Origin: a virus
Lineage: Duplodnaviria; Heunggongvirae; Uroviricota; Caudoviricetes
DNA length: 31,175 nucleotides
Direction: 5' to 3' (one strand)
Virus record (IMG/VR): IMGVR_UViG_2565956711_000006
Span: 1-31,175 of that record
Positions 1 through 28,984 of this stretch are shown here, one piece after another; position 1 is the stretch's first letter, and every line of letters begins with the position of its first letter. Under the pieces are notes generated by a model. The model ran no database searches, was not told where the DNA came from, and saw only the letters and a list, made by a program, of their open reading frames with translations. A program made the translations under genes and the position numbers.

Positions 1-648
1 ATGGAAACAATCATCACCGTTATCGCCGCTGTTGCTGGGATCGCTTTTTGGGTTGGGCTAATCAATCCCAAATGGGTTTTTATGCCAAATCGAAAGCGCT
101 CATCTGCTATATACTTCGGGGTGTGCCTCTTGGCAGCAATCATAGGTTCAATGGTTGCACCAGTCGCGCCGAAAGCTGTTGCTGAAAATAAACCCCAGCC
201 AGCAGTGACAAACACAGAACAAACACAACCCGCGGCTAAACCCAAAGAACAATTAACAACCACTATCGACTTTTCAGAAGCGACTAATCAACTTCCCCTT
301 GCCTTATCCAAGGCGCTCGGAGATCTGAATCTCACAGTTAAACCAGTCATTTACAACAAAGCCTTAGTAGTTGCATTCAATTTTGACAGCATAGAAGAAC
401 TACAGGCGAAAAGTGCCGTTCAGTCCGTATGCATCAGCTATTTCAATCACGGGGAATCTAACAGGGCTTGGAAGGCTGGTTTATTCGATCATATTTATGT
501 GACTAACGACATTTTAACCAAAGGCTACGTTTTTCAGGGCGGTGAATCTTCGTGTGATATCTGGGGCAAAAAGGCCGGGGATAGTGGCGATCAATATTTA
601 AGTGAAAACCTTACACGATCAAGGTTTGTAGCCATAAACATGAAATAA
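1..648 (+). CDS. hypothetical membrane-anchored protein (two N-terminal hydrophobic helices, Pro/Gln/Thr-rich linker, C-terminal globular domain)
   Basis: ORF from ATG at position 1 to TAA 646-648; hydrophobic segments IITVIAAVAGIAFWVGL and IYFGVCLLAAIIGSMVA; no family recognised; visibly more AT-rich than adjacent phage genes; 5' end may be cut by the window edge. Confidence 0.5.
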   Translation: METIITVIAAVAGIAFWVGLINPKWVFMPNRKRSSAIYFGVCLLAAIIGSMVAPVAPKAVAENKPQPAVTNTEQTQPAAKPKEQLTTTIDFSEATNQLPLALSKALGDLNLTVKPVIYNKALVVAFNFDSIEELQAKSAVQSVCISYFNHGESNRAWKAGLFDHIYVTNDILTKGYVFQGGESSCDIWGKKAGDSGDQYLSENLTRSRFVAINMK

Positions 649-651
649 ATA

Positions 652-678
652 AAGGCCCCATTTAGGGGCCGCTTTTAT
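652..678. terminator. bidirectional intrinsic terminator shared by the convergent ORF 1..648 and ogr
   Basis: GC stem GGCCCC (654-659) / GGGGCC (665-670) with 5-nt loop, followed by a T-run on the plus strand (gcttttat) and on the minus strand (tttatttattt). Confidence 0.6.
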
Positions 679-917
679 AATGCCAGCGATAACTGATCTT
701 CGCCGTGGTGACTTCTTGGAAAAGCTTCTTGTGGCACCATCGCGCCGGGCGCTGGCTGGGTCTGGTTTAGTGAACCGTCTATTTCCGTCATGCTGGTGAA
801 ACAGTACCCGCACAACATATTTTGACACTGGTGATAGCTGCGCCGCACAAGCAAACTCAGCTCAACACTGGTTCTGGTTTTTGCTATTGCACGGCAGCGA
901 GGACAGCGCATTGCCAT
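675..917 (-). CDS. ogr: late-gene transcriptional activator, Ogr/Delta zinc-finger family
   Basis: 80-aa product MAMRCPRCRAIAKTRTSV...YHQCQNMLCGYCF with C-X2-C-X22-C-X4-C spacing as in P2 Ogr (recalled); AGGAGG 7 nt upstream of ATG at 917; lies directly downstream of D as in P2. Confidence 0.8.
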   Translation of the reverse strand: MAMRCPRCRAIAKTRTSVELSLLVRRSYHQCQNMLCGYCFTSMTEIDGSLNQTQPAPGAMVPQEAFPRSHHGEDQLSLAL

Positions 918-965
918 ACGCGGGCCTCCTTTCAGGATTGGTTAATATCAACGCAAGTATAACGC

Positions 966-2084
966 TTAAGACGTTGAATCGTCACTCTCCGCTGTCCAGT
1001 CGTCGATTTTTACTTCCAGTTCCAGCGACGTGGTAAACCCTCCCCCGCCAATATCGTGAACGCACCGCGTTATCGTCCAGTTCCCACTGTCGATCGTGGA
1101 CTTAAAGCCGTAGACGCTGGCGGGCTGTTCCGGGTACAAATCTGCGCGGCCACGCGCCAGGGTGATACTGAACGTCGCCGCTCCACGCTGCAACTCCCGC
1201 CACTTAGCCGCAGCGGCACGCTTCGCCGCCTTTTCCGTCTTGAAGGTTTTACGGATAACAAAAACGTTACCTTCGGCCCCGGCCAGATAATCACCCTCTT
1301 TTTTGCTGGATGCAGGCTCTTTCTTTTTGGCCTGGCTGGTTCGTCGCCTGCGGGTGGTTTTCTTCACGGTAGTGGATGGTTTTTTGCCAAAGTTGAGATC
1401 AAGCCAGTATGCAGTTACGCCTGTGTACGCGTCGCGGTCAGCTACGTTAAACCGATGTTTATCACCGCTTGACCGGACGATCTCGATTACCGGCAGCGGC
1501 TTGCCACTCTGCGTCACTCCCTTGCCCGGCGTGATAAACAGAAGCATACCGTTTTTAATGGTTGCCACCGCGCCCAGCATTTCGGCCATGCGCGTTAAGA
1601 AGCTGATATCTGATTCACTCGTCTGATCAGCGTGGTCTATCTCAATCTTCGCCAGTTCTTCGCTGACGCCCGCACGCAGATCGTAGCGGCTGGCAATGCT
1701 GGCGACCACATCCCCCACGGTAATATCGTGCCAGCTATATTCCCTCTTCACGTTGAAGGTATCGCGGAAATCTGCGCTTCTGGCACTGATCGTTAGCTGG
1801 TCAGGCGGGCCAGCGTGTCCGATTTCGTCAACCGTATACACTCCCTTAAAAACCAATGGATCATTATCCCAGCCCAGCGCCACCGATATCTTTGCGCCGC
1901 GTGATGGTAATGCTACCTGCCCGTCAGCATCATCCAGAGTCAGATCCAGCGTGTCCGCTTCAAAGCCCCGGTTATCTGTCAGAGAAAGGGAGATCAGCCG
2001 GTTATCCAGCGCCGTAAGCTGCTTACCCTCAATCTCAATACTGAACGCCGGGCGCGGCGAATATCGGTTTTCTGTCGTGTCCAT
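966..2084 (-). CDS. D: tail protein gpD (late control gene D family)
   Basis: 372-aa ORF; N-terminus MDTTENRYSPRPAFSIEIEGKQLTALDNRL matches remembered P2 gpD/Mu N-type tail proteins; SD GAAGGAG upstream of ATG 2084; D-ogr order as in P2. Confidence 0.88.
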   Translation of the reverse strand: MDTTENRYSPRPAFSIEIEGKQLTALDNRLISLSLTDNRGFEADTLDLTLDDADGQVALPSRGAKISVALGWDNDPLVFKGVYTVDEIGHAGPPDQLTISARSADFRDTFNVKREYSWHDITVGDVVASIASRYDLRAGVSEELAKIEIDHADQTSESDISFLTRMAEMLGAVATIKNGMLLFITPGKGVTQSGKPLPVIEIVRSSGDKHRFNVADRDAYTGVTAYWLDLNFGKKPSTTVKKTTRRRRTSQAKKKEPASSKKEGDYLAGAEGNVFVIRKTFKTEKAAKRAAAAKWRELQRGAATFSITLARGRADLYPEQPASVYGFKSTIDSGNWTITRCVHDIGGGGFTTSLELEVKIDDWTAESDDSTS

Positions 2085-2151
2085 ATCAACTCCTTCATCA
2101 TGATGGGGTACATCGTCGCCACGCGCGCGCGCATGAACAACGCCCCGTCAT

Positions 2152-2169
2152 TGTTGCAGGTTGCTGACA
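2152..2169. promoter_or_regulatory. TGT-N12-ACA dyad, candidate Ogr-dependent late-promoter activator site, between divergent D and FI
   Basis: tgt tgcaggttgctg aca read directly; centre 2160.5; candidate -10 gatatt at 2207-2212 (FI side) and gatgta on the minus strand at 2109-2114 (D side), each 46.5 bp from the dyad centre. Confidence 0.55.
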
Positions 2170-2241
2170 ACCCTTATTCATCGCATCGGCCTGCCATTGC
2201 CGCAATGATATTCGCAGTCATTAAACTGGCGAGGCAAATAC

Positions 2242-3435
2242 ATGGCCACTAACTACCATCACGGTGTAACCGTCACGGAAACCACCGACCTTAGCACGAT
2301 GATCACCGACATTGATTCGGCGGTGATCGGCGTTGTCTGCACCGCTGATGATGCGGACGAAACAGCGTTCCCGCTGGATACCCCTGTACTGATCACCCGC
2401 GTGGCTAACATGCTGGGCAAGGCAGGTAAAACCGGCACCCTGTTTACCACCCTGAAAGCGATTTCAGACCAGACCAGCCCGCAAACCATTGTGATCCGCG
2501 TTGCTGATGCTGCAAATATCGAACCGCCAGAAGGCGGCACCGCACAGACACAGGATCAACTGGTTATTGGCGGCACCGATGCAAACGGACGCTTTACCGG
2601 CATGTACGCGCTGCTGTCTGCCGAAATGCGCGTAGGCGTGCGCCCGCGTGTGCTGGCTGTTCCCGGTCTTGATACGGAAGCGGTGGCCGCACAACTCGGC
2701 GTCATTGCCGAAAAGCTGCGCGCGTTTGCTTACGTGGCAGCGAACGGCTGCAACAGCATCGCCGAAGTGAAGGAATACCGCGAACAGTTCTCCCAGCGTG
2801 AAATGATGGTTATCTGGCCTAATTTCATCTGCTACGACACCAACGCCGGAGCGAATGCCACCGTGCCCGTGGGTGCCCATGCGGTTGGGATGCGCGCCAA
2901 AATCGACGCAACGCAGGGCTGGCATAAAACCATTTCCAACGTGCCCGTTAATAACGTGCTGGGGATGGATCGGGATATCTATTTCACGTTGCAGGGCACC
3001 GATACCGACGCCGACGAACTGAACGCAGCAGGCGTTACCACGCTGATCAAGCAGGACGGCTACCGCATCTGGGGATCGCGTACCTGCGACGCGGAAACGT
3101 ATATCTTCGAAAGCTATACCCGAACCGCGCAGATCGTTGCGGATACCGTCGCCGAAGCACATTTCGCCTATGTTGATAAACCGCTTACCCCGTCGCTGGT
3201 AAAGGACATTGTGGACGGTATCAATAAGAAGCTGACCTCATATGTGACGGCTGGCAAGCTGCTGGGCGCCCGCTGCTGGTATGACCCGGAACCGAATACC
3301 TCGGAAACCCTGCGCAATGGTCAACTGACCATTAAGTACAACTACACCCCTGTTCCACCGCTGGAAAATCTCAGCCTGGTACAGGAGTTCACCGACGAAT
3401 ATTTCGCTACGTTTTCCAGCGCAGTGAATAACTAA
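2242..3435 (+). CDS. FI: contractile tail sheath protein gpFI
   Basis: 397-aa ORF; MATNYHHGVTVTETTDLSTMI... resembles P2 FI; followed by tube and E/E' genes. Confidence 0.92.
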   Translation: MATNYHHGVTVTETTDLSTMITDIDSAVIGVVCTADDADETAFPLDTPVLITRVANMLGKAGKTGTLFTTLKAISDQTSPQTIVIRVADAANIEPPEGGTAQTQDQLVIGGTDANGRFTGMYALLSAEMRVGVRPRVLAVPGLDTEAVAAQLGVIAEKLRAFAYVAANGCNSIAEVKEYREQFSQREMMVIWPNFICYDTNAGANATVPVGAHAVGMRAKIDATQGWHKTISNVPVNNVLGMDRDIYFTLQGTDTDADELNAAGVTTLIKQDGYRIWGSRTCDAETYIFESYTRTAQIVADTVAEAHFAYVDKPLTPSLVKDIVDGINKKLTSYVTAGKLLGARCWYDPEPNTSETLRNGQLTIKYNYTPVPPLENLSLVQEFTDEYFATFSSAVNN

Positions 3436-3447
3436 CCGGGGGCGCTT

Positions 3448-3963
3448 ATGGCACTGCCTAAGAAACTCAAATATTTCAATATGTTCTTTGACGGGGATAA
3501 CTACTTCGGCATGGTGCCGGAAATCACCCCCGCCAAACTCACCAAAAAAACCGAAGACTACCAGGCGGGCGGTATGCCGGGTTCGGTTGCGGTGGATCTG
3601 GGCTTCGACGCTGGCGCCCTGGATATGGATATCACGCTGGGCGGCATGGATGCAGGGCTAATGAAAAAATGGGGCGTTACCACTGCGGACGGAATGCAGG
3701 TGCGCTTTGCTGGCTCTTACCAGGACGATGCGACCGGCGACGCCGTACCGTGCGAAATCCAGACGCGTGGCCGCTTCACTGAACTGGATCCCGGTTCGGC
3801 AAAGGTTGGGGATGATACTTCGCATAAGTACACCCTGAAAAACACCTATTACAAGCTGACCATCAATAGCGAAGAAATTATCGAAATTGATGTGCTCAAC
3901 ATGATCTACAAAGTTGCCGGTGTGGATGTGCTGGAAAAACACCGCGCTAACATCGGCTTATAA
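3448..3963 (+). CDS. FII: tail tube protein gpFII
   Basis: 171-aa ORF MALPKKLKYFNMFFDGDNYFGMVPEITPA..., P2 FII-like size and position. Confidence 0.9.
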   Translation: MALPKKLKYFNMFFDGDNYFGMVPEITPAKLTKKTEDYQAGGMPGSVAVDLGFDAGALDMDITLGGMDAGLMKKWGVTTADGMQVRFAGSYQDDATGDAVPCEIQTRGRFTELDPGSAKVGDDTSHKYTLKNTYYKLTINSEEIIEIDVLNMIYKVAGVDVLEKHRANIGL

Positions 3964-3977
3964 GGAAACCCGGCACC

Positions 3978-4313
3978 ATGAGCAAGACCAAAGAAAACAC
4001 CGTTATTCTTACCGCCCCTATTACGCGCGGTAAGACCAAAATCACCGAAGTGGCGATCACTTCCGTGCTTAAACAGGCTGGATCACTGCGCGGCTTAAAA
4101 GCCTATGACGTGCTGACGTCCAACTATGACGCGCTGGTTATTCTGCTGCCCCGCGTTACCGCTCCGGCACTAACCGCCGATGAGATTGCCCGAATGGATA
4201 CCTGGGATTTTTGCCAGTTAGCCAACGCGGTGGTTGATTTTTTGCAACCCTCTTCGGATCTGACCGCGACGGATACGGGCAACGAATCATCCGATGCCCC
4301 TGCGAACGCATAG
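3978..4313 (+). CDS. E: tail assembly chaperone gpE (zero-frame product)
   Basis: 111-aa ORF between tube and tape-measure genes; contains slippery TTTTTTG at 4238-4244. Confidence 0.8.
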   Translation: MSKTKENTVILTAPITRGKTKITEVAITSVLKQAGSLRGLKAYDVLTSNYDALVILLPRVTAPALTADEIARMDTWDFCQLANAVVDFLQPSSDLTATDTGNESSDAPANA

Positions 4314-4438
4314 AAGACCTGATGGCAGATATCGCCGTCATATTCCACTGGCGGCCGGTAGAGATGGACGCCATGACGGTACAGGAAATACTGTTATGGC
4401 GTGATCAGGCGGCTGCGCGCAGTGGTGGAGATCACTAA
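3978..4438 (+). CDS. E': tail assembly chaperone gpE+E', predicted programmed -1 frameshift product
   Basis: After T6G (4238-4244) the -1 frame stays open to TAA 4436-4438, encoding ...EDLMADIAVIFHWRPVEMDAMTVQEILLWRDQAAARSGGDH, and ends 1 nt before the tape-measure ATG (4439); canonical chaperone frameshift arrangement. Confidence 0.7.
4238..4244 (+). other. slippery heptamer T TTT TTG for -1 ribosomal frameshift
   Basis: ttttttg read in E frame as ..D-F-L..; the -1 frame is open downstream. Confidence 0.7.
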
Positions 4439-7372
4439 ATGGCAGACCGCAATTTAAATATCAGGGTGGCATTCAGCGCCCTGAATAATATGTCCCGCCC
4501 TGTCAACGCGGCGCGCCAGAGTGCCGCCGCGTTGGCGTCTCAAATCAATCAGACCAAAACCAGCATCAAAGGGCTTGAGCGTCAGGCAACCAGCTTCGAC
4601 CGCCTCACCGCAGCCAATAAAAAAACCACCGAACAACTGGCCCAGGCGAAAGAACAGGCCCGGCAAATGGCGGCGGCTTATGGCCCGTTACGCCAGCGCA
4701 GCGCCGAACAGGTTGCCGCCCTCAATCAGCAACGTGCAGCCATTCGCCAGTTAACCCAGCAGCAGAAAGGTGAGCAGACGCAGCTTAATCAGTTGCGCGC
4801 CAGCTTCTACAGCGAAGGCATTGCGATCCGCAGCGCCAGCCGGGCGACGGAACAGATCAACCAGCGCACTGCGCAATACAATCGCCAGCTTGCCGAACAG
4901 CAGCGACGGCTTGACGCTGTAAACCAGGCGCAGGCCCGTTACAGCCGCGCCAAAGAAACCGGCGAAAAGATGATGAGCGGGGGAATGAAAACCGCCGCAG
5001 TGGGTGCGGCAACCCTCGCACCTGTCGCCGCTGCGGTGAAATCCTACAGCAGTCTTGAAGACGCGATGAAGGGCGTAGCCAAACAGGTAAACGGCTTGCG
5101 TGACGACAGCGGCAACCGCACCCCGCAATATGAAGAAATGCAGCGGGCGATCATGGATGCCAGCGAAAAGCTGCCAATGGCAAACGGTGCTGTTGACTAT
5201 GCCGCCCTGGTCGAAGGCGGCGCACGTATGGGCGTCGCAAACAGCGATGATCCGTGGGAAAAACAAAAAGCCGATCTGCTGTCTTTCGCCAGCATGGCGG
5301 CAAAGGCTTCTGTTGCCTTCGAACTTCCCGCCGACCAGCTTTCTGAAAGTCTCGGTAAGATTGCCGGGCTGTATAAAATCCCAACCCAAAACATTGAACA
5401 GTTAGGCGACGCCATAAACTACCTGGACGATAACGCGAAGTCGAAAGGCTCCGATATTATCGACGTGCTCCAGCGCGTTGGCGGACTTGCCAGCCAACTG
5501 GATTACAAGCAAGCCGCCGCGCTGGGTTCCACCTTTCTGACGCTTGGATCACCTGCCGAAGTTGCCGCCAGCGCAACCAATGCAATGGTGCGCGAACTAT
5601 CGATCGCCACAGTACAAAGCGATAAATTTTTTGGTGCGCTGGATGAAATCGGCGTCAATGCTGAAAAAGTCCAGAAAAGCATGTCAGTGGACGCGATGGG
5701 CACAATCATTTCAGTGCTGGAAGCGTCCAAAAAACTTGCACCAGATAAGCAGGTAGCCAACCTTACTCAAATTTTCGGTAAAGAGTTCGGCGATGATGCG
5801 CAGAAACTTGCGAACAACCTGCCCGAACTACGCCGCCAAATAGAACTGACGCAGGGCGCAGCCGCCAAAGGTTCTATGAATCGGGAATCTGATATCAATA
5901 AAGATTCCCTTTCAGCTCAGTGGCAACTGACCAAAACCGGCGCGGTTAACGCATTGAGTTCAGCAGGGGAAACGCTCCGCGAACCGCTGATGGATATCAT
6001 GCTTACCGTCAGTAAGGTAGTTGGCAGCGTCCGCCGCTGGGTTGAGGCAAATCCGGCTCTGGTTGGCTCAATCATGAAAGTCACCGCAGCCATAGGCGCG
6101 TTGCTGGTTGTCGTGGGTGGCCTGATGCTGACCATCGGCGCAGTGCTCGGCCAGATGGCACTTGTTCGCCTCAGCTTCACCACGTTGGCCGGTGAAGGAG
6201 GAATAGCGCGGCTGACTGGTGGAGTAATGCGCCTGGGTGGTGCATTCCAGTGGCTTGCTGGCTCGCCTATGCAGGCATTGTTAAGCGCCGGTCGCATGGT
6301 ATTCTGCCCGCTTATCACGCTACTGGCTGGCATTTCTGCACCCGTCTGGGGGCTGATTGCTCTCTTTGCTGCGGCAGCAGTGGCCGTCATTAAATTCTGG
6401 GAACCAATACAGGCATTTTTCACTGGTTTCTTTAACGGCATCATGACGGGCTTACAACCTGTATTTGATGCTTTCAACGCTGTTTTCGCTCCATTAGCCC
6501 CAATCTTTGACGCGATAGGCTCCGCTATTAGCGGCGTTTGGGATTGGTTTACAAAATTGCTTGAACCGATCAAATTTTCCAGCGATGCGCTAGAAACTTG
6601 CACTACTGTTGGCGAAACATTTGGGAGGGTTCTGGGTACTGCAATAAGCGGTTTGCTTTGGCCGCTACAAAAACTGATGGAGGGTGTCGGCTGGGTACTG
6701 GAGAAACTTGATCTAATTCCTGCTGGACTTGATGCAGCAAACGCCAAAGCAGAAAGCCTTAAAAAAGATCCCGTTGTCTGGGAGTGGGATCCGCAGCAAA
6801 AGAAAATGGTTAAAAAGGATTGGCACTGGTCGCCGGATAAACCAAACCAACCTAAACCGCCAAAACCACCAATAACTCCGAAGCCAGTTGGCATCCCAGA
6901 CCTTATGGGAGCGCCAAACTTAACGCCGAAGATGAGCAAGAGTCTGGATAAAATCGCAGACAACACGGGAAAAATGGCGGCAAAAGACGGCCCCGGCGAA
7001 ATCGTCTTCAAGAATAAGCAGCCCTATATCCCGATCCGGGGCGGATATTCGGAACCGCTTAAGCAGGCGCAGCGCCAGCTACCATCCCTTACCGATTGGG
7101 TGACGCAGCAGACCGGATCGCTGATCGCTTCCGTTACACCGTGGCAGGTTGAGAAGCCCGCCGCACGGGTTCCCGTTTCGGCGTCGCCCTCTGCGGCTTC
7201 CGTCGCTGCGCTAATGCCTGCGCCGGGTGGCGATGTATATAACCTTAACTTCGACTTTAGCGGCCAGAAACTGGATGAAGAAACCATTATCAGGCGCGTG
7301 CGCGAAGAACTTGCGTTAGCGAAGCAGCAAGCCGACCGGCGCAAGCGTTCCCAACTGACCGATCACGTCTAA
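4439..7372 (+). CDS. T: tail tape measure protein gpT
   Basis: 977-aa ORF, coiled-coil-rich N-terminus, hydrophobic central region, Pro-rich segment; position after E/E'. Confidence 0.9.
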   Translation: MADRNLNIRVAFSALNNMSRPVNAARQSAAALASQINQTKTSIKGLERQATSFDRLTAANKKTTEQLAQAKEQARQMAAAYGPLRQRSAEQVAALNQQRAAIRQLTQQQKGEQTQLNQLRASFYSEGIAIRSASRATEQINQRTAQYNRQLAEQQRRLDAVNQAQARYSRAKETGEKMMSGGMKTAAVGAATLAPVAAAVKSYSSLEDAMKGVAKQVNGLRDDSGNRTPQYEEMQRAIMDASEKLPMANGAVDYAALVEGGARMGVANSDDPWEKQKADLLSFASMAAKASVAFELPADQLSESLGKIAGLYKIPTQNIEQLGDAINYLDDNAKSKGSDIIDVLQRVGGLASQLDYKQAAALGSTFLTLGSPAEVAASATNAMVRELSIATVQSDKFFGALDEIGVNAEKVQKSMSVDAMGTIISVLEASKKLAPDKQVANLTQIFGKEFGDDAQKLANNLPELRRQIELTQGAAAKGSMNRESDINKDSLSAQWQLTKTGAVNALSSAGETLREPLMDIMLTVSKVVGSVRRWVEANPALVGSIMKVTAAIGALLVVVGGLMLTIGAVLGQMALVRLSFTTLAGEGGIARLTGGVMRLGGAFQWLAGSPMQALLSAGRMVFCPLITLLAGISAPVWGLIALFAAAAVAVIKFWEPIQAFFTGFFNGIMTGLQPVFDAFNAVFAPLAPIFDAIGSAISGVWDWFTKLLEPIKFSSDALETCTTVGETFGRVLGTAISGLLWPLQKLMEGVGWVLEKLDLIPAGLDAANAKAESLKKDPVVWEWDPQQKKMVKKDWHWSPDKPNQPKPPKPPITPKPVGIPDLMGAPNLTPKMSKSLDKIADNTGKMAAKDGPGEIVFKNKQPYIPIRGGYSEPLKQAQRQLPSLTDWVTQQTGSLIASVTPWQVEKPAARVPVSASPSAASVAALMPAPGGDVYNLNFDFSGQKLDEETIIRRVREELALAKQQADRRKRSQLTDHV

Positions 7373-7382
7373 GGGCAATATC

Positions 7383-7832
7383 ATGATGATGATTCTGGGG
7401 ATGTTCCCCTTTTCACTGCAAACCACGCCTTACCAGAGTGCGAATAAAACCAACTCATGGCGGCACGTCAAAAACGATCGCGTGGGGAAATCCCCGCGCT
7501 ATCAGTTCATCGGCGCTGATGAAGAACCGTTCGTACTCAGCGGCACGCTGTACCCCGAAATAAGCGGCGGTGATGTGTCGCTTGTCATGCTGGAAACTAT
7601 GGCTTTTTCCGGGCGCCCGTGGCCCCTGATTGAAGGCACGGGCAGGATCTACGGCATGTATGTAATTGAGCAGATTACGCAAAACCGGACGGAATTTTTT
7701 AAGGACGGGAAGGCAAAGAAAATTGATTTTACGCTCAACCTGAAACGGGTAAGCGAGGACATACGGGAAAAGCTGGCGGAAATCACCAATGATGATGTGC
7801 TGTCTATGGTGAAAGCGGGGGTGAATTTCTAA
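7383..7832 (+). CDS. U: tail protein gpU
   Basis: 149-aa ORF MMMILGMFPFSLQTTPYQSANKTNSWRHV... immediately after T. Confidence 0.85.
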   Translation: MMMILGMFPFSLQTTPYQSANKTNSWRHVKNDRVGKSPRYQFIGADEEPFVLSGTLYPEISGGDVSLVMLETMAFSGRPWPLIEGTGRIYGMYVIEQITQNRTEFFKDGKAKKIDFTLNLKRVSEDIREKLAEITNDDVLSMVKAGVNF

Positions 7833-7943
7833 CTTTATTTTTTATGGCCAATACGTTCATTGTTGGCAGTGTGGTACCGAAATCTTCGGGCACCGTCACT
7901 TTTAACCGTGCTACAGCACGGTCATTTATGGCGGTGCTGTAGC

Positions 7944-7969
7944 TTCTATCAAAGGTTGGTTTGGGAGAA
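7944..7969. repeat. hix/gix-like 26-bp crossover site (left end of invertible tail-fibre segment)
   Basis: ttctatcaaagg tt ggtttgggagaa; inner 14 bp (7956-7969) is the exact reverse complement of 9791-9804. Confidence 0.7.
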
Positions 7970-8290
7970 GCGGCAAAACGGAATGTGGGAACAGGGGAAA
8001 ATCAGATACCTGATATGTCATCATATGCATCAGGTTCAGGCTGGCGAAAAATGCCAGATGGTTCAATTGAACAGTGGGGACGAATTAGTTTTCCTGGTGA
8101 ACACGGGCCTGTATCCGCCAATGTTTCATTCCCGATTCCATTTACACAGACACCGGGCATTGTAATTGTGTGCGATGGTGGTTTCGGGGGCGGGAATATG
8201 TGGGGGGCGACCAACTGGAGCACTACCGGCTTCATAGCTCACTGCAATTATGGTCTTGAAGGTGGTGCGTTTTTCGCTAAGGGCTGGTAA
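7958..8290 (+). CDS. alternative tail-fibre C-terminal exon (Hv'), silent in this orientation, no start codon of its own
   Basis: Frame open from the crossover site: [16 protein letters not shown]...[20 protein letters not shown]; shares LGLGE junction with H; stop TAA 8288-8290 overlaps the G' ATG. Confidence 0.7.
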
Positions 8291-8733
8291 TGATGAAATA
8301 TCTGTACGTAAACAACCTGGCATATCCTTACGAACTTCAGTCTCTTTATGTTGAAAAAGGTGAATGGCCTGAAGAAAAAGGTGTTGATATAGACGAAGTA
8401 ATTTTCAGGGAATATTTCTATGACACACCACCAGAAGGAAAATACAGATGTGTTGGAGAAGATGGACTGCCTGCATGGGCAGATATTCCTCCACCAACAC
8501 GTGAAGAACAAATTGCATCAGCCGAAACTAAAAAGCAGCAATTGATTAACCAGGCCAACGAATACATCAACAGTAAACAATGGCCAGGTAAAGCATCAAT
8601 TGGTCGTCTGAAAGGTGAGGAACTGGCGCAATATAATTTGTGGCTGGATTATCTGGACGCACTGGAGCTGGTCGATACTTCCAGTGCGCCAGATATTGAA
8701 TGGCCTACGCCTCCGGCAGTTCAGGCCAGATGA
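8290..8733 (+). CDS. alternative tail-fibre assembly chaperone (G'/Tfa')
   Basis: 147 aa; C-terminal LDALELVDTSSAPDIEWP parallels IDAVTATDTSTAPDVIWP of the minus-strand G; converges with and overlaps the 3' end of G. Confidence 0.8.
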   Translation: MMKYLYVNNLAYPYELQSLYVEKGEWPEEKGVDIDEVIFREYFYDTPPEGKYRCVGEDGLPAWADIPPPTREEQIASAETKKQQLINQANEYINSKQWPGKASIGRLKGEELAQYNLWLDYLDALELVDTSSAPDIEWPTPPAVQAR

Positions 8734-9307
8734 CATCCGGCGCGGTGCTGGTATCTGTTGCCGTCACCGCGTCAATGTAATTCAGCACAGCGTTAAGTCG
8801 GGTGTTTTCTGTCTGCATCAGCTTCCGCCCGGCCTGTAATTTCAGTTGAATCAGACTAATGGAAGCCATTGCAGTATCAATCAGTGACTGACGCTGTGCT
8901 TCTGCCGCGCCTACTGCGGCGCTATGCTGTGCCTCGGTATCCGTCACCCATTTCTCACCATCCCATTCATCGTATGGCGTTAATGGGGCGATAGTGGTTG
9001 TATTTTCAGGGTAATCACCCGGAACTGTGATTTCTTTGGTATCTCCCGTTTCGGTACTATAGACAACTTCACCGCGATGGTCTGGCACATATTCCCATGA
9101 ATTTAAATCTACAGAGCGACAGATTGCATAACCAGCTTTATGTGTACCTGGTGCATCCAGACAGGAACATGCCGGGATACCGACGCCGACAGCGAGATAT
9201 TCAGTTGATGTAGAAATATATTCCCGCGTTTCGCCATCATAGTTATGTACGATGATTTCCCCATCATTTAAAGCGTAACCGTCTTTTCCCAAAATAGCCT
9301 GTTCCAT
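8705..9307 (-). CDS. G: tail-fibre assembly chaperone gpG (expressed orientation)
   Basis: 200-aa ORF starting immediately after the H stop; conserved Tfa C-terminal motif. Confidence 0.85.
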   Translation of the reverse strand: MEQAILGKDGYALNDGEIIVHNYDGETREYISTSTEYLAVGVGIPACSCLDAPGTHKAGYAICRSVDLNSWEYVPDHRGEVVYSTETGDTKEITVPGDYPENTTTIAPLTPYDEWDGEKWVTDTEAQHSAAVGAAEAQRQSLIDTAMASISLIQLKLQAGRKLMQTENTRLNAVLNYIDAVTATDTSTAPDVIWPELPEA

Positions 9308-10852
9308 TTATGCAGCCCTCACAATGTAGTTAAATGCAATGTTTCGCGGGCTACCATCACCGGCGCCGGAACTGACATGATTGGTTCTATCCATTCGTTT
9401 ACTGTCATTTGTTGTTCCACTCCCATCCTTCCACGAATACAATAACCCGCCATCGCCAATGCTCAACTGCACCGCAAATACGGATGAACCGGATGAATAA
9501 ACATCTCCAGCCATGAGTGGGTTCCCTGTCCATCCATGCATTTCATGGTTATGTTCAAGGATAGATGCTGCCTGACTTGAAAGCAGCAGTCTCGCGGAAT
9601 CAACACCTCGCCCATCATCCCACCCGCGAATAAACTCACCGCGCAAATCCGGTAATTTTAACTTTGGGTAAGCCTTTGCCAGTTTTGGGTACTCTTCGGC
9701 AGAAAAAGGTGCACCGTTGCATTTCAGCCAGCCTGTTGGTGGTGTGGCTGAAGGCCACGGAACAGGCACACCAACGGGTAACGCTGAGCCTTCTCCCAAA
9801 CCAAGGTATTGGAGAATGCCGTTAACTGTCTTTCCCGATAAATCAGTTAAAGTGCTATCAAGCGGCTGCTTACCCGCCAGCGCATTCGTTACAGTGGTGG
9901 CAAAGTTTGGATCATTTCCCAGCGCTGCCGCCAATTCATTCAGCGTGTCCAGTGCAGCCGGGGATGATGCTACCAGTGCAGCAATTGCTGATTTCACAAA
10001 TTCCGTTGTGGCAATCTGCGTATTATTCACTGTCTGCGCCGCAGTAGGTGCGGTGGGTGTTCCGGTCATAGCTGGGCTTGCCAGCGGAGCTTTCAACGCA
10101 AGAGCGTTGTTAATGGTTGCACTGAAATTAGGATCATTGTTGATTGCAGTAGCAATTTCTTTCAGTGTATCCAACGTGGCGGGCGCACCTCCAATCACAG
10201 CAACCAACGCCGCCTGAACAAATGCGGTATTCGCCAGCTGTGTGGAGTTATTACCAGCCGTAGCAGTCGGCGCTGTAGGCGTTCCCGTCAGGGCCGGGCT
10301 TGCCTTTGGTGCATATTGTTTATGAGGGTCTGCCGCTGCGATGTGCGCCGCCAGTTGCTGATCTACGAAGGCTTTAACCTGGATTATCTGGTCATCAACA
10401 TACTGACGAGTCGCCAGTACTACCGAAGGGTCAATTTTCAGCGTCACGGCGGCGGTGCTGCTGACAATCAGGATCATGCGTACAACCTGTACGCGCCCGC
10501 TTCCCTCCTGTAACTGCGGCTTATACGTTTCCGCACAGTTGGCTACGGCAATCATATCGCCGTCTTTATCGAATAAACCGATTTCACGGATCCACCACCC
10601 GCCCTCGTCTTCAGGTATCACCTGCTCGGCAATAATCTGGTTGGCGTTATTCGGGTCAATGCTCAGACTATTAAGCGGCTTGCGGCGCAGCTCATGAACC
10701 AGCGCCGTTTGTGCCGGGTTCGGCGTCGGCAACACGCCGTTACCATCGCCTACAGCCATCTTGGTGATTTCAACCTGCGCACCCAATGCCGTGGCATTTG
10801 CCAGTTTCGCCGCGCCCACATTGGTTAGCACGGCATAATATTTAGTCGCCAC
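9308..10852 (-). CDS. H: tail fibre protein gpH (constant N-terminal part plus currently joined variable tip Hv)
   Basis: N-terminal region resembles P2 H (..AVLTNVGAAKLANATALGAQVEITKMAVGDG..); C-terminal tip has tail-collar-like motifs (PWP..GWLKCNGAPFS..LPDLRGEFIRGWDDGRGVD); the track starts at TTG 10873, but GTG at 10852 with GGAG upstream aligns better with the P2 H start. Confidence 0.85.
   Translation of the reverse strand: MATKYYAVLTNVGAAKLANATALGAQVEITKMAVGDGNGVLPTPNPAQTALVHELRRKPLNSLSIDPNNANQIIAEQVIPEDEGGWWIREIGLFDKDGDMIAVANCAETYKPQLQEGSGRVQVVRMILIVSSTAAVTLKIDPSVVLATRQYVDDQIIQVKAFVDQQLAAHIAAADPHKQYAPKASPALTGTPTAPTATAGNNSTQLANTAFVQAALVAVIGGAPATLDTLKEIATAINNDPNFSATINNALALKAPLASPAMTGTPTAPTAAQTVNNTQIATTEFVKSAIAALVASSPAALDTLNELAAALGNDPNFATTVTNALAGKQPLDSTLTDLSGKTVNGILQYLGLGEGSALPVGVPVPWPSATPPTGWLKCNGAPFSAEEYPKLAKAYPKLKLPDLRGEFIRGWDDGRGVDSARLLLSSQAASILEHNHEMHGWTGNPLMAGDVYSSGSSVFAVQLSIGDGGLLYSWKDGSGTTNDSKRMDRTNHVSSGAGDGSPRNIAFNYIVRAA
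9791..9816. repeat. hix/gix-like 26-bp crossover site inside H (right end of invertible segment)
   Basis: ttctcccaaacc aa ggtattggagaa, near-perfect palindrome; encodes ILQYLGLGE in the H frame; resembles remembered hixL/gix sites. Confidence 0.7.
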
Positions 10853-11456
10853 TTGCGATCTCCACGGTGTCAATTAAATGGATTGCCGCCCCGGTGTAAT
10901 CATCACCGCCCACGGCTATGGTTTCAGGAAAATACGGGTACACGGTTAGCGTATCGCCGGAATAACTGCCCGCGCCGATATACAGATCGCCGGTTGTTTG
11001 CAGGTGAAGAGACATTCCCAGCATATGACGGCTGCACGGCTTCACATCGGCGATCAGGCGTTCAAGTTCCTGATAGGTTTCTTCACTAATGCCCTGGTCT
11101 TCCACGCCAATATCCAGCGTGAAGGTGCCCGGTGCGGTGTCGATGTTCCACCACTCGTTAACCCGGATGAAGAAGCCGAACGGCTCCACAACCCGGCGCA
11201 TGGCGCCCGTTGTACCCTTGTACTTATGCAGGTAAAACGCATCGGCCACCGCCTTTCGTTTTGTGTTTATCGGCCAGGCCTCATCCCAGCGATCAACGGA
11301 GAAGGCCCACGCCAGATAGGGCAACAGATCAGCCCGACACGTCCACGGGTTCCACAACTGGCGCAGCGGCACGGGCACTTCACCCAACGACGCACAGACG
11401 CGCGCGGCGACGCGCTCCATTCGGCTGGCGCTGGGTGGTAACAGGTCATTACTCAT
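10842..11456 (-). CDS. I: baseplate assembly protein gpI
   Basis: ORF after J; ATG at 11456 (MSNDLLPP...) overlaps the J stop; position and size fit P2 I. Confidence 0.8.
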   Translation of the reverse strand: MSNDLLPPSASRMERVAARVCASLGEVPVPLRQLWNPWTCRADLLPYLAWAFSVDRWDEAWPINTKRKAVADAFYLHKYKGTTGAMRRVVEPFGFFIRVNEWWNIDTAPGTFTLDIGVEDQGISEETYQELERLIADVKPCSRHMLGMSLHLQTTGDLYIGAGSYSGDTLTVYPYFPETIAVGGDDYTGAAIHLIDTVEIASGD

Positions 11457-12360
11457 CGTAACCACCCACCGTTATGGTGTATTCGGTGCAGTGCGATGCC
11501 TGGTAGTCACTCAGCACAATATCCGCAACAGGCTGCGCCAGTTCCACGCGCTGGACGCCTTCGACGTGCAGGGCGGCGTAGATAGCTGAAAGACGGATAT
11601 CGCGCCCTAAGCGATTCTGCGCGGCAATATACGCCTGTAACTGCTGTTCCGATGCCTGCCGGACGGGTTCAGCTTCCGGCCCCGGATAGATGTAAAGCGT
11701 TGCATCAATCTGATACGGCACGATCTCCGCAGACTGCACCGTTACCCTGTCGGCCACCGGGCGCACTTCTTCATCGTTCAGGGCAGCAGCGACCACGGAA
11801 AGCAGATCATCGCTGGCCGTTCCGTCACCTTCGCGCGACAGCACCGAAATGGTGACGCAGGCAGGCGTAGGACTCACCGCCGAAATATCAGCTACGCGCC
11901 CGTCTGCTGAACGCCCCCAAAATTCATACGCCGCAGTTGGCCCGGCCACGCTCAGACCTTCAAAAGCCTGCTGGGTACGCGTGCGTAAATCTGGGTCTGA
12001 CTCCATCACGGCTTCAATTGGCGGTGTAACGCTGTCGTCTTCTTCCTGAATGGTCAGACGTTCAACGTTGAAATTGACCGCCAGATTATCCAGATCGCTA
12101 TCCGTGGAATAAGCCAGCATCACCGCGCGGGCTGCTTCATTCACCCGCTGGCGCAACAGCAATTCGCGATAGCAATTCTCTTCCAGCAGCATGGTGATCG
12201 GCTCCGATTCAAGCTCAAGCGTGCGGGCGATCTCTTCCTGCTCGTCTTCCGGGTACATCGCAATAAATGCCGCCTTGCGCTGCGCGAAAAGCGTTTCGAA
12301 GTCCAGCGGTTCAACCACCACGGGCGGCGGTAGCTGCGATAAATCGATCGTGCCGCTCAT
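11449..12360 (-). CDS. J: baseplate assembly protein gpJ
   Basis: 303-aa ORF MSGTIDLSQLPPPVVVEPLDFETLFAQRKAAF...; ATGA overlap with W stop. Confidence 0.88.
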   Translation of the reverse strand: MSGTIDLSQLPPPVVVEPLDFETLFAQRKAAFIAMYPEDEQEEIARTLELESEPITMLLEENCYRELLLRQRVNEAARAVMLAYSTDSDLDNLAVNFNVERLTIQEEDDSVTPPIEAVMESDPDLRTRTQQAFEGLSVAGPTAAYEFWGRSADGRVADISAVSPTPACVTISVLSREGDGTASDDLLSVVAAALNDEEVRPVADRVTVQSAEIVPYQIDATLYIYPGPEAEPVRQASEQQLQAYIAAQNRLGRDIRLSAIYAALHVEGVQRVELAQPVADIVLSDYQASHCTEYTITVGGYDE

Positions 12361-12719
12361 GCCTGGCCCCTCAATGTAATATCAGCGTTAAATGGCGTCT
12401 GATTGTCGGTGCGATTGGCCTGGATAGTGGCAACCAGCCGACCGGCACCCGGCGCGCTCAGGGTGATACTGGTCAGAGAGATCCGCGGTTCCCATAAATA
12501 CAGGGCGCTGTAGATGGCAGACATAACGCGCAGCTTCGTTATGGCGTTATCGACCGGCTGATCTATCAGGTTGAAAAGCTGTGAACCGTAAGCGCGGCGC
12601 ATTACACGGGAACCGATCGGCGTTAACAGAATATCGCCGATAGACTGCGCTATATGCTCGTTGTCGGTGATGGCATGGCCTGAACTGGCATTCATGCCGC
12701 TGTAACGGACTGTACTCAT
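12357..12719 (-). CDS. W: baseplate protein gpW
   Basis: 120-aa ORF, ATGA overlap with V stop; W-like position and size. Confidence 0.82.
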   Translation of the reverse strand: MSTVRYSGMNASSGHAITDNEHIAQSIGDILLTPIGSRVMRRAYGSQLFNLIDQPVDNAITKLRVMSAIYSALYLWEPRISLTSITLSAPGAGRLVATIQANRTDNQTPFNADITLRGQA

Positions 12720-13345
12720 ACCGGGCCACCTGTATTACTACCACCGGACTGGACGCCGCTATGTTTGTGAGAATGGACAACGACACCATTAGACGAAAGC
12801 GATCCACCTGAATGGGTAATATTGCCCTTCATTTCCCCGCCCTTTTGCACTTCCAGCGTGGCGGTGATCAGCTTGTTGGTGCAGACCACTTCCGGCGTGT
12901 CCAGGGTAACGCGCGTATCTGCCTTGACCGTTACCACCGGCACGGTGGCGGTAATGGATTCCGACGCGGTGACGCTTGCCGTTTTCACCCCGCTGACAAC
13001 CAGCGCGCTGGCCTCCGGGTCATATGAGATACGGGCGCCATCCGGGTGCAGGATCACGCAGGTGGTAGCGCCAGCATCTGGCGGCGGTGCGTCTTCGCTG
13101 TAAAGGCTTCCGGCAATGAATGCCGTTTCCATCTCACCGCAGGGGCACAAAATATAAACCTGTTCGCCCACTGTCGGCGCCCACCACGTCACGGCTTCAC
13201 CGGCGCGCGGCACTGCCCAGCGGATCCAGTCGGTTTTGTTCTCGCCGGTTTCGACGCGTGCAAGATACTTTTTCGTGTCCACTTCCAGCACGGTGCCAAT
13301 GCGGGCGAGATTGCAGATAAGGCGATAGAGTTCGTTTAAATTCAT
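12716..13345 (-). CDS. V: baseplate spike/central hub protein gpV
   Basis: 209-aa ORF MNLNELYRLICNLARIGTVLEVD...; first gene of V-W-J-I-H-G operon. Confidence 0.85.
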   Translation of the reverse strand: MNLNELYRLICNLARIGTVLEVDTKKYLARVETGENKTDWIRWAVPRAGEAVTWWAPTVGEQVYILCPCGEMETAFIAGSLYSEDAPPPDAGATTCVILHPDGARISYDPEASALVVSGVKTASVTASESITATVPVVTVKADTRVTLDTPEVVCTNKLITATLEVQKGGEMKGNITHSGGSLSSNGVVVHSHKHSGVQSGGSNTGGPV

Positions 13346-13483
13346 AGTGCTGACTGTTTCCCGTGGTGCCGGTTACGCTGTCCGGCGTCGCTTCCGCCCG
13401 GTAGCAGGCTTTACGACCGTTTCGGCTTTTGGGTTATGCAGTCAGTATCAGGAGTCGCGCGCGCGCAAACAACGCGGCGCCAT

Positions 13484-13501
13484 TGTGGCAGGTTGGTGAC
13501 A
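13484..13501. promoter_or_regulatory. TGT-N12-ACA dyad, candidate Ogr box for the V-operon late promoter
   Basis: tgt ggcaggttggtg aca; 20 of 22 nt identical to the FI-proximal element (cattgtNgcaggttgNtgacaa); candidate -10 gatact on the minus strand at 13444-13449. Confidence 0.55.
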
Positions 13502-13502
13502 A

Positions 13503-14147
13503 TCAAATCTCTTGCATGAAGGCGACAACAGTATCGGCCAGCCAGTCTAAATCACCCTCGGTCATGCCCAGGAGTTCACGCACCGGGTAGCGTGCACGGG
13601 CACCCGGCACCACGTTATCGACTTCACCGTACTGGTGAACGCTGGCGATTTCGGCGGTATGCCCCTGAAAGCCAACCACTGCCATGCCGCCCGTACCGTA
13701 AGCCTTAAGAAAGCGTGCGGTGCGCAGCTTGCGGAACATCGGATCCTTTCTGGTGCGGTTCTGCTTGGACTGGTTGAGATTGATTTCAATATAGCGCTGG
13801 ATATCGCGCTTATAGAACGTGCGCAGGGCACCGCGATCCACGTCATAGCCGGTGATTGCGCGGTGCTCACCCCTGCCCGTGGTTCGCCAGTTGCGTAACT
13901 CCCTGGCCTCATCATTCCATATGAACTTTATCCCGCCCTGGGTGCGCAGGATTTTGCGGCGGCGGGCCGGATAGCTTTCACCGCTGGGGTTCTTCTGGCT
14001 GGCGATACGCTTTTGCTGGCGCTTACGCAGCCCGATCGCAACGTCGCGCGTCAGCTTGCGACGGTGCCCCGGCGAAAGCTGCGCGGCCACGCTGGCTAGC
14101 CAGTCGTCTAACTGCTGGAAGAGGGGATCGGTTTGTTGTCCTGCCAT
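13503..14147 (-). CDS. S: tail completion / virion morphogenesis protein (gpS-like)
   Basis: 214-aa ORF in the P2 S position between R and V; assignment by position and general resemblance, not a firm match. Confidence 0.65.
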   Translation of the reverse strand: MAGQQTDPLFQQLDDWLASVAAQLSPGHRRKLTRDVAIGLRKRQQKRIASQKNPSGESYPARRRKILRTQGGIKFIWNDEARELRNWRTTGRGEHRAITGYDVDRGALRTFYKRDIQRYIEINLNQSKQNRTRKDPMFRKLRTARFLKAYGTGGMAVVGFQGHTAEIASVHQYGEVDNVVPGARARYPVRELLGMTEGDLDWLADTVVAFMQEI

Positions 14148-14602
14148 GTTTCGCCGCTGACCTCATCAACAAATACCAGTGACCACGCGCCAATTTCTGG
14201 CCCCGGTGCAGGGTCAGCACGGTGACGGGTGACGATCTCGCCATCTTCACGGGTAACTATCACTGCTTCATCAGCCTGAATCTGGATCAGCACGTCCATC
14301 GTGCTGTTACTCAGAATATCGGCTTCAAATGTTATGCCGTTCTGCTGCCTGTCCGGGTTAAACAACAGATCAGGCTGATATAAGCGCGCCCATGCCAGCA
14401 CCGGCACGCTGATAGTATCCAGAGATTCAGGGTAATCCATCACCAGCACTTCCAGCGTATAGCGGTACTCAAACGCAGCAGCACGCTGGCCGGTGCTGAC
14501 CATACGACCTTTTCGCAGATAAACAGCCAGATTATCGGGATTCTCACGCAGCCAGGGCACATGCTGGCTTATCATCTGGCGCAGTAAATCGGGTTTAAGC
14601 AT
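14108..14602 (-). CDS. R: tail completion protein (gpR-like)
   Basis: 164-aa ORF in the P2 R position downstream of the lysis genes. Confidence 0.65.
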   Translation of the reverse strand: MLKPDLLRQMISQHVPWLRENPDNLAVYLRKGRMVSTGQRAAAFEYRYTLEVLVMDYPESLDTISVPVLAWARLYQPDLLFNPDRQQNGITFEADILSNSTMDVLIQIQADEAVIVTREDGEIVTRHRADPAPGPEIGAWSLVFVDEVSGETWQDNKPIPSSSS

Positions 14603-14789: not shown

Positions 14790-15313
14790 TATTTCCCCCT
14801 GCTAATTGAATAATAAGCAGCTTCACAGGCTAACCCTCTGGCTCTTGCCTCGTCAGCATCTTTTGCCAGTTGTCCCGCTCGATCGTCAGCGCGGCGGAAC
14901 AGGTCGGCGAGCAGTACGGCGCCGCTGGTTTCTGCCTCGCTTCTGCCGGGAGTTCCGGCACCGCAGGCGCGTTCACGGTCTGCCAGTCGCCTGGCGAGTT
15001 TGTCGGCCCTGTCGTGCAGCCCACGAGAAGCAGCACGGGCACGATCGGCATCAGCCTGTACGCCAGCAAGCTGCTGGCTGGCTTGTTTTCTGATCGCATC
15101 AATTTCACCTTGTCGGCGTTGTTCTTCTGCCCTGGCCTCAGCCTGCCTTTGCGCCAGCGCGGTGGCGTCGCGTGCATCACGTTGCGCCCACTCTCCACGC
15201 CAGTGCTGATCGGCATCACCATAACCGGCGCTGTAACGCCAGTGGCTAAAACCCCAAACAGCAGCAGCGGCCAGCACAAGACAAACGATCACTTTCCAGC
15301 GTGACAACCCCAT
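14789..15313 (-). CDS. i-spanin (Rz/LysB-like)
   Basis: 174 aa; N-terminal TM helix (WKVIVCLVLAAAAVW) then Arg/Ala/Gln-rich coiled-coil; SD GAGAGG upstream. Confidence 0.8.
   Translation of the reverse strand: MGLSRWKVIVCLVLAAAAVWGFSHWRYSAGYGDADQHWRGEWAQRDARDATALAQRQAEARAEEQRRQGEIDAIRKQASQQLAGVQADADRARAASRGLHDRADKLARRLADRERACGAGTPGRSEAETSGAVLLADLFRRADDRAGQLAKDADEARARGLACEAAYYSISRGK
14830..15051 (-). CDS. o-spanin (Rz1-like lipoprotein) fully embedded in the i-spanin gene in another frame
   Basis: MPIVPVLLLVGC lipobox-like signal then Pro-rich periplasmic segment; start could instead be the upstream MRSENK Met (15099). Confidence 0.65.
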   Translation of the reverse strand: MPIVPVLLLVGCTTGPTNSPGDWQTVNAPAVPELPAEARQKPAAPYCSPTCSAALTIERDNWQKMLTRQEPEG

Positions 15314-15413
15314 CTCTAAACCTCTCGCCAGCTCGCACTGTCATTACCGGACGTGCTGGAGCACTGTCAAAAATGACCGCGCTCGATACGCACGGCCAGC
15401 ACAGTTAAAAATG

Positions 15414-21664: not shown

Positions 21665-22714
21665 TTGAGCGGCAAAAAAAAATTCAGGGCGCCAACTGCT
21701 GCGCCAGCCAGCACGGCCAGCAACGCAGCCACCCCGCTGGAAAGCGTGGAATCTTTCAGCTTTGGCGACCCGATCGCAGTCAACGATCGCGCGTCTCTTA
21801 TGGAGTGCCTCGAATGCCATAACAATGGCCGCTGGTATGAACCACCGATCAGCCCCTACGGGCTGGCGCGCATGTTCGACGTTGCCGCCTATCACCAGTC
21901 ACCGCTGATATTTAAACGCAATGTTATCGCCAGTTGCTACATACCGCACCCGCTGTTGACCCGGCAGGAGTTCACCGCCTGGGTGCAGGATTATTTAATT
22001 TTCGGTAACTGTTACATGGAATGCCGCCGCAACCGACTCGGCCAGCCGATCGAGCTGCGGCACAGCCAGGCAAAATATACGCGGCGCGGCATAGACCCGG
22101 CGCAATTCTGGTTTGTTCCGCGCTACGTTGACGATCACGCGTTCGAACCGGGCAGCGTCTGCCAGATCAAGAACCCCAGCCCGCACCAGGAGATCTACGG
22201 TGCGCCGGAATATCTGGCCGCGCTACAAAGCGCCATGCTGAACGGTGAAGCAACGGTGTTCCGCCGCAACTACTACATTAACGGCAGTCATGCGGGTGTG
22301 ATCGTCTACCTCACTGACCCGGTGGCGAATAATAACGATGTGGAAAAGCTTAAGAAGTCGCTGAAAGATGCACGCGGCAACGGTGCTTTTAAAAACCTGT
22401 TTGTCTACGCGGCGGGCGGGAAAAAAGACGGCCTGCAAATTATGCCGTTCAGCCAGGTGGCGGCGAAGGATGAGTTTACCGGCATCAAAGACGCCACCCG
22501 CGACGACCTGTTAGCCGCGCACCGCGTGCCGCCCGTTCTGATGGGGGTAATGCCGAATAACTCCGGTGGCTTCGGCGACGTAGAGAAAGCGGCGAAGGTG
22601 TTTTCCATCAACGAACTGGCCCCGATACAAGAAAGCCTGAAAGAGTTAAACGACTGGCTGGGGATCGACGTGGTGCGCTTCAACCCTTACGCACTGTTGC
22701 AGGCAGCAATCTGA
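21665..22714 (+). CDS. Q: portal protein gpQ
   Basis: 349 aa; starts at TTG 21665 directly after the terminase TAA, with SD GGAGGAG 8 nt upstream. Confidence 0.88.
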   Translation: MSGKKKFRAPTAAPASTASNAATPLESVESFSFGDPIAVNDRASLMECLECHNNGRWYEPPISPYGLARMFDVAAYHQSPLIFKRNVIASCYIPHPLLTRQEFTAWVQDYLIFGNCYMECRRNRLGQPIELRHSQAKYTRRGIDPAQFWFVPRYVDDHAFEPGSVCQIKNPSPHQEIYGAPEYLAALQSAMLNGEATVFRRNYYINGSHAGVIVYLTDPVANNNDVEKLKKSLKDARGNGAFKNLFVYAAGGKKDGLQIMPFSQVAAKDEFTGIKDATRDDLLAAHRVPPVLMGVMPNNSGGFGDVEKAAKVFSINELAPIQESLKELNDWLGIDVVRFNPYALLQAAI

Positions 22715-22784
22715 CGCCAGCCCGGACACACCCACCACCACCGCGCAAAGGCCTACACGGCCATAACTGACCACACCGCACGTA

Positions 22785-22822
22785 AGCCCCTCAGCAGCCT
22801 GCTGGCAGGGGCTTTTCTTTTT
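22785..22822 (+). terminator. candidate intrinsic terminator after the P-Q operon
   Basis: GC-rich imperfect hairpin agcccctcagcagcctgctggcaggggc followed by ttttctttttcc. Confidence 0.45.
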
Positions 22823-22924
22823 CCTCAACCCACCACGGCGAACCGAAAACGACGTAGCAGCGAGGCGCAGCGGCGCGAAAATCGGCGCAGATAATACCGA
22901 CCCTATCCCACCCCTCAGCGCGCG

Positions 22925-28974: not shown

Positions 28975-28984
28975 CGCGATAACC

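Follow-up and report, generated by a model that had tools for sequence, protein, structure and literature searches.

The locus studied here raises the question of how a tail-fiber switch could be turned over in a prophage that encodes no enzyme for turning it. The 31,175-bp stretch of DNA that was analyzed (IMG/VR virus record IMGVR_UViG_2565956711_000006; hereafter the window) represents a complete P2-like prophage of Escherichia coli, similar to phages SEN4 and SEN5 of Senquatrovirus. It contains a tail-fiber segment bounded by two inverted crossover sites, and no invertase gene was found next to this segment or anywhere else in the window. The best account of the locus, and in our view a probable one, is a standard Din-type (Gin/Cin/Pin-type) tail-fiber switch run by a borrowed invertase. 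Since the same invertase-less junction of the tail gene gpU, a spacer, and a crossover site was found in both orientations of the segment among near-identical prophages, inversion occurred without a cis-encoded invertase.

Structure of the invertible segment

The two crossover sites are 26 bp long, each with 12-bp half-sites around a 2-bp core, and are inverted relative to each other, with matching cores and a perfect inverted repeat of 15 bp. The left site (7944–7969; TTCTATCAAAGG TT GGTTTGGGAGAA; core 7956–7957) has a weak outer half with four mismatches to the consensus TTCTCCCAAACC and a perfect inner half. The right site (9791–9816; TTCTCCCAAACC AA GGTATTGGAGAA; core 9803–9804) has no mismatches in one half and two in the other, and lies inside the reading frame of the tail fiber gene H (...ILQYLG|LGEG...). 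No further site of this kind occurs in the window when as many as six mismatches to the consensus are allowed; more than two crossover sites, as in the multiple-inversion systems (Min of p15B, shufflons), were not found. Homology with other phages having the same segment begins exactly at the left-site core. The inverting DNA comprises positions 7956–9804 (1,849 bp, including both cores). A preliminary description of this DNA had placed an invertible segment with intact-looking sites at 7833–10873; the segment and both sites were indeed identified, but the coordinates were too wide and correspond to the entire interval between gpU and H.

The interior of the segment consists of two mirror-image cassettes, each encoding a fiber tip and its own assembly protein. 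On the minus strand are the currently expressed variable C-terminal part of H (Sv, 9308–9802, about 165 codons, with a Collar domain), which is present as an orphan open reading frame (ORF) in flipped copies, and the partner of this tip, the 200-aa tail-fiber assembly protein Tfa (8705–9307; Pfam Caudo_TAP_N and Caudo_TAP). The plus strand encodes the silent alternative C-terminal part (Sv', 7961–8290, 109 codons, Pfam Gp53-like_C) and its partner, the 147-aa assembly protein Tfa' (8290–8733; Pfam PF02413, Caudo_TAP). The N-terminal constant part of H (H-constant, 9805–10852, minus strand; Pfam Phage_tail_fib and Collar, also annotated by the Prokaryotic Genome Annotation Pipeline, PGAP) is outside the inverting DNA. 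In the present orientation, the whole H gene spans 9308–10852 and encodes 514 aa. In-silico inversion of 7956–9804 brought Sv' in frame with H-constant and produced an open 460-aa H' with the Gp53-like tip, replacing the 514-aa H with the Collar tip; the predicted sequence of the flipped junction is GCTGTAGCTTCTATCAAAGGTTGGTTTGGGAGAAGGCTCAGCG.

The segment is flanked by H-constant on one side and by gpU on the other, as had been noted before. The gpU gene (7383–7832, plus strand) encodes a 149-aa tail protein, assigned to Pfam PF06995 in a 100%-identical copy (contig L014) and annotated by PGAP as "phage tail protein" in E. coli EC09. The sheath-tube-tape-measure operon, convergent with the fiber operon, ends with this gene. 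Only a 111-bp spacer (7833–7943) separates gpU from the left site, in place of the invertase gene; in sibling prophages, about 750 bp, including a 582-bp invertase gene, are found here.

Absence of an invertase gene

The preliminary description stated that the window encodes no invertase and that none of its six-frame ORFs resembles a serine recombinase, and all searches agreed with this. A tblastn search of the window with the 193-aa invertase of the sibling prophages and with a Hin sequence gave best E values of 0.15–1.2, compared to 1e-120 for the positive control. A profile hidden Markov model of seven Din-family invertases, run with the option --max against all six-frame stop-to-stop segments of at least 25 aa, yielded a best E value of 0.55; the controls scored 9e-106 for an intact gene and 4e-62 and 6e-38 for the halves of a frameshifted pseudogene. 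A Pfam scan of the unannotated ORFs of the window revealed only a tyrosine integrase and no serine recombinase, and the integrase is the sole recombinase listed in the PGAP annotation of the 99.6%-identical copy in EC09. Since the prophage encodes no serine invertase, the enzyme would have to act in trans.

It is extremely improbable that an unrecognized recombinase of the window, e.g., the tyrosine integrase or a hypothetical protein, inverts the segment. Candidates for such a role could be sought among the ORFs without a Pfam match (1–648, 22646–23065, 23029–23370, 23093–23872, and 28724–29188), but the crossover sites, with their 2-bp core, are of the textbook Din-family type on which serine invertases act, none of the frames gave a serine-recombinase signal, and the siblings have a conventional invertase at the same position.

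Both orientations occur without an invertase gene

Flipped copies of the segment were recognized by the tip that the window now expresses, which persists in them as an orphan ORF of 163 aa (TTG start at 9799). Contig L021 (GCA_040425755.1) matches positions 1961–7970 of the window with no mismatches in 6,010 bp. Beyond position 7970, it continues with 9804→7956 inverted at 99.2% identity, followed by 9790–14452 at 98.5% identity, and it encodes a 460-aa H' in which 454 of the 460 residues are as predicted. The 85-nt left junction obtained by in-silico inversion was found exactly in five independent assemblies, namely L021 and four others (L024, L027, L028, and L029) comprising two Logan assemblies and two metagenome contigs; the right in-silico junction is present in L021. 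A second, more diverged lineage has the same invertase-less junction, with the segment unflipped in L038 and flipped in ECONIH4, NA3664, and CAVP776. No invertase was found in any of the flipped or unflipped loci of both lineages.

As judged from these alignments, inversion took place after the invertase-less junction arose, with exchange exactly at the cores, and probably more than once. The preliminary description had left a choice between an invertase supplied in trans and a frozen switch; the finding of both orientations with the same invertase-less junction selects the former for the prophage lineage, and the possibility that inversion never occurs is answered by the five assemblies carrying the exact flipped junction.

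Differences in orientation might also be produced by homologous recombination or gene conversion with the segments of other phages, or by assembly error. Tail-fiber cassettes are highly mosaic in this lineage, and the segment of L021 differs from that of the window at 15 positions, which would fit such an origin. However, the points of exchange fall precisely on the 2-bp cores of canonical 26-bp sites, and the flipped part of L027 is 100% identical to the segment of the window over 737 bp. Since the perfect inverted repeat is only 15 bp long, below the minimal homology for RecA-dependent recombination, homologous recombination is an unlikely source of the flips. A repeat of this length is also too short to mislead an assembler, and the L021 contig crosses both junctions unbroken. 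Overall, recombination of this kind and assembly error are very improbable explanations.

Sibling prophages and the loss of the gene

The sibling prophages (e.g., in strains 2020N21-246, 1332KP, and 0H26) share with the window the gene order and the convergent tail operons, with flanks 93%–97% identical, as well as a homologous two-site segment, but unlike the window they have a 193-aa invertase gene between gpU and the left site. Their layout, observed in more than 20 complete E. coli genomes, is gpU (plus strand), 106 bp, a gene for a 193-aa "recombinase family protein" (minus strand), about 60 bp, and the left site. The encoded invertase is 63% identical to Hin. Homology between the window and the siblings ends at 7814, in the last codons of gpU, the final six of which are unlike those of the siblings, and picks up again at 7951. 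The exact 91-aa product of Sv' and the adjacent gene for the 147-aa Tfa' were found in 13 contigs; among the contigs listed, 8 of 10 have a Resolvase/HTH_7 gene ahead of this cassette, the exceptions being the window's own genome and one relative. The rule that an invertase gene normally abuts the segment therefore holds within this lineage too.

Phages SEN4 and SEN5 have the same convergent layout of gpU and the fiber operon as the window, but their fiber cassette is non-invertible. SEN5 (L002) retains only a stretch of about 95 nt (~14936–15030) that matches the sibling invertase gene at its 3' end; this stretch lies directly beside a tail-fiber assembly gene, and no invertible segment is present, an independent loss of both the invertase and the segment. 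Since SEN5 keeps only this remnant beside a non-invertible cassette, loss of the invertase happened at least twice in the group. A frameshifted invertase gene was observed in another P2-like prophage (L020, GCA_036811495.1, 5306–5877), where it appears as two tblastn pieces in different frames and stands beside the same Sv tip in the silent position.

The spacer that replaces the gene is strongly structured, with an RNA fold of −50.4 kcal/mol (z = −6.15) for 7826–7960. A short GC-rich palindromic element (motif ...CCGTGCTACAGCACGG...TTAAAAGTGAC...) is present at 7886–7943 and, in the opposite orientation, at 15352–15410; it also occurs between gpU and the invertase in the siblings and in SEN5, and may be a terminator or a protein-binding site. 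The spacer together with the outer half-site can be aligned to the reverse complement of the sibling sequence from the end of gpU through the spacer to the 3' end of the invertase gene (score 80 versus 24.8 ± 4.6 for shuffled sequences), and the gpU end of the siblings holds a site-like sequence, GTGAAAACC AA CCTTTCGATA. The invertase gene might have been lost if this quasi-site and the left site first underwent a secondary inversion and the gene was then deleted, a possible but rather doubtful route. The right half of its prediction fits the window sequence; the predicted left junction was not found. Also unfavorable to this route is that the 51-bp core of the spacer homology is the repeated element that is present at 15352–15410 as well. 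A search for the junction in species-representative genomes gave no match, and the gpU tail plus spacer was found in no phage of the phage collection.

The operon FI-FII-E-T-U (2242–7832, plus strand) is convergent with the operon V-W-J-I-H-tfa (13345–8705, minus strand). A recent inversion of the large FI–U block was considered as a cause of the missing invertase and ruled out: SEN4, SEN5, and all E. coli relatives keep the same order, and the convergent arrangement is thus a lineage trait rather than a recent rearrangement.

Source of the enzyme and the question of the enhancer

Homologues of the sibling invertase gene were detectable at the DNA level in 3,798 of 5,426 complete E. coli genomes (70%), in up to nine places per genome. 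A query combining a unique cargo gene of the prophage, used as an anchor, with the invertase gene matched EC09 in four places and prophage-only records in one or two places, as expected; EC09 would accordingly have about three invertase-like loci elsewhere in its genome. A query of this anchor-plus-invertase type matched six places in ECONIH4, two in NA3664, and five in CAVP776, counts that are confounded by cross-matches of gpU. The classical enzymes Gin, Cin, Pin, and Hin cross-react. Action on a foreign segment has precedents among prophages: Phi4 of strain EC958 inverts despite its truncated invertase, from which trans action was inferred by the authors (PMC4134206), and the P segment of e14 is turned over by PinQ, which is encoded by prophage Qin (PMC12529663).

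In the proposed mechanism, the two inverted 26-bp sites flanking 1.85 kb with two tip-plus-chaperone cassettes would be recombined by a Din-family invertase that a co-resident prophage or other element encodes. Inversion would join one tip or the other to H-constant in a continuous reading frame, giving the 514-aa fiber with the Collar tip or the 460-aa fiber with the Gp53-like tip. With no nearby enhancer, flipping would probably be infrequent. While the anatomy of the locus, the absence of the gene, and the two orientations can be read directly in the DNA, we infer the identity of the enzyme, the rate of flipping, and the absence of enhancer function.

In Hin, Gin, and Cin systems, the enhancer is located in the 5' part of the invertase gene. 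Since it lies inside this gene in the characterized relatives, the canonical Fis enhancer is missing from the window too. The Fis-bound enhancer of Din systems comprises 65 bp about 100 bp from one site, and the wild-type enzyme depends on it, although it can act from many kilobases away (PMC3798978). Since loss of the invertase gene removed this enhancer, only rare flipping is expected unless its place is taken by a cryptic enhancer, which may be the case in the window. Paired Fis-like sites 48 bp apart were found 0 times in the window against 0.6 expected, but the pair that should be present in the invertase gene of the siblings was missed by the motif as well, which makes this zero uninformative. 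Slow flipping in the absence of the canonical enhancer would be expected to leave single-orientation assemblies, as observed, and hosts that lack a compatible invertase would keep the switch in one position.

Several observations weigh against a borrowed invertase. No within-sample heterogeneity was observed, and all the evidence comes from comparisons of assemblies. The segments of the diverged lineage are 88%–90% identical, and its orientation differences could partly reflect cassette replacement. The supply of invertase is judged from other E. coli genomes, a comparison that the window's own host stands outside. Finally, no homologue of the 5' (enhancer) region of the sibling invertase gene was found in the window, so efficient flipping is not expected.

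Alternatively, the switch might be effectively frozen in this host, for want of a compatible invertase or because the rate is negligible without an enhancer; in that case only the 514-aa fiber would be made, and the silent cassette would be a decaying relic. Its arguments are the approximately 30% of complete E. coli genomes without a DNA-detectable invertase homologue, the absence of the canonical enhancer, and signs of decay in relatives, such as the ~95-nt remnant of the gene in SEN5, which has no segment, and the left outer half-site joined to non-site DNA in contigs L011, L012, and L016. However, both sites, both tips, and both chaperone ORFs of the window are intact, and the silent Sv', with its exact 91-aa product, and the tfa' gene recur in the 13 contigs mentioned above. 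Moreover, flipped copies with identical flanks occur in at least five assemblies, so freezing does not extend to the entire lineage. A frozen switch is therefore unlikely, and inversion by a borrowed invertase is preferred.

Possible exchange of cassettes at the crossover sites

The outer half-site TTCTATCAAAGG plus the core (7944–7957 in the window) represents a fixed joint in 14 contigs of the gpU lineage (L010–L019, at ~5562–5575, and L040–L043): to the right of it, the contigs part company precisely at the core and continue with at least 10 unrelated sequences. Some of these contigs have full two-site segments and others have no inner half-site; in L016, the stop codon of tfa is 6 nt from the core. 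One of them is L043 (OGSC01000304.1), which is 99.975% identical to positions 1–7968 of the window and 97% identical to positions 9790–12084, and has a different 1.5-kb segment (8161–9746 in L043) between the same two outer half-sites (7944–9816 in the window). A whole cassette thus appears to have been swapped within the bounds of the crossover sites. The inner sequence (TT GGTTTGGGAGAAGCGGCAAAACGG...) recurs unchanged in other prophages (L030–L037, at ~1430–1460), where it adjoins four different outer half-sites; all of these have an invertase about 130 bp away. These patterns tentatively suggest, as an extension of the borrowed-invertase account that is itself less likely to hold than not to, that the fixed outer half-sites might serve as docking points, at which borrowed invertases would not only flip the segment but also replace it, wholly or in part, with cassettes of other phages in a natural form of recombinase-mediated cassette exchange, and would do so without a canonical cis enhancer.

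Other features of the prophage

The gene set and order of the late region are of the P2 type, and D, FI, FII, E, T, U, V, W, J, I, H, capsid, terminase, portal, A, cox, int, and ogr are present. The first 25 kb show 95.4% identity over 81% to the Salmonella phages SEN4 and SEN5 (Peduoviridae, Senquatrovirus). The 99.6%-identical copy in EC09 is situated between fieF and cpxP, and contig KI530595.1 (GCA_000488015.1) is 100% identical to positions 2383–12832 of the window. A sibling prophage of E. coli 2020N21-246-1 is present as a separate 32-kb record (NZ_JBQJRQ010000002.1, 32,330 bp) besides the chromosomal copy in the same assembly, which suggests an excised circular form and hence an active phage lineage.

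The tape-measure gene (4439–7372 in the window) exists in 977-aa and 1,056-aa versions among the compared prophages with identical gpU (L011–L019). The minus-strand ORF at 675–917 encodes an intact 80-aa Ogr/Delta zinc-finger protein (Pfam E = 1.5e-13), whereas PGAP treats the counterpart in the near-identical copy of EC09 as a partial pseudogene. At the end of the prophage, beyond ogr, a 215-aa cargo ORF (1–648) without a Pfam match is predicted to have a membrane helix at its N-terminus, and was found in only a handful of E. coli genomes.

Comparison with known systems

If the proposed account is true, a phage host-range switch can outlast the loss of its own recombinase and still be flipped by the enzymes of co-resident prophages, and the receptor specificity of the particles released by a lysogen would depend on the other prophages of the host. 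The locus would also offer a natural substrate for asking how much Din-family inversion needs a nearby Fis enhancer in vivo. For genome annotation, it serves as a caution that an invertible segment with orphan 3' fiber fragments can be active with no invertase nearby.

The window shares with the G segment of Mu (Gin), the C segment of P1 (Cin), and the P segment of e14 (Pin) the 26-bp imperfectly palindromic inverted sites with a 2-bp core, the constant N-terminus of the fiber outside the segment, and the mirror-image tip-plus-chaperone cassettes joined in frame at the conserved ...GLGE... motif. It differs from them in having no adjacent invertase gene, and hence no gene-internal Fis enhancer, and in the weak outer half of the left site with its four mismatches. 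Apart from an adjacent invertase and the canonical enhancer, it thus has all the structural properties of this family. Further parallels are Phi4 of EC958 (PMC4134206) and e14 acted upon by PinQ (PMC12529663), where the enzyme that flips the segment comes, as proposed here, from another place in the genome. However, Phi4 keeps a truncated invertase gene that lacks only the helix-turn-helix domain and presumably retains the 5' enhancer region, and e14 keeps pinE, whereas the window has lost the gene entirely. This complete loss and the accompanying question of the enhancer are the only unusual point of this prophage; inversion of tail-fiber segments in trans is already documented.

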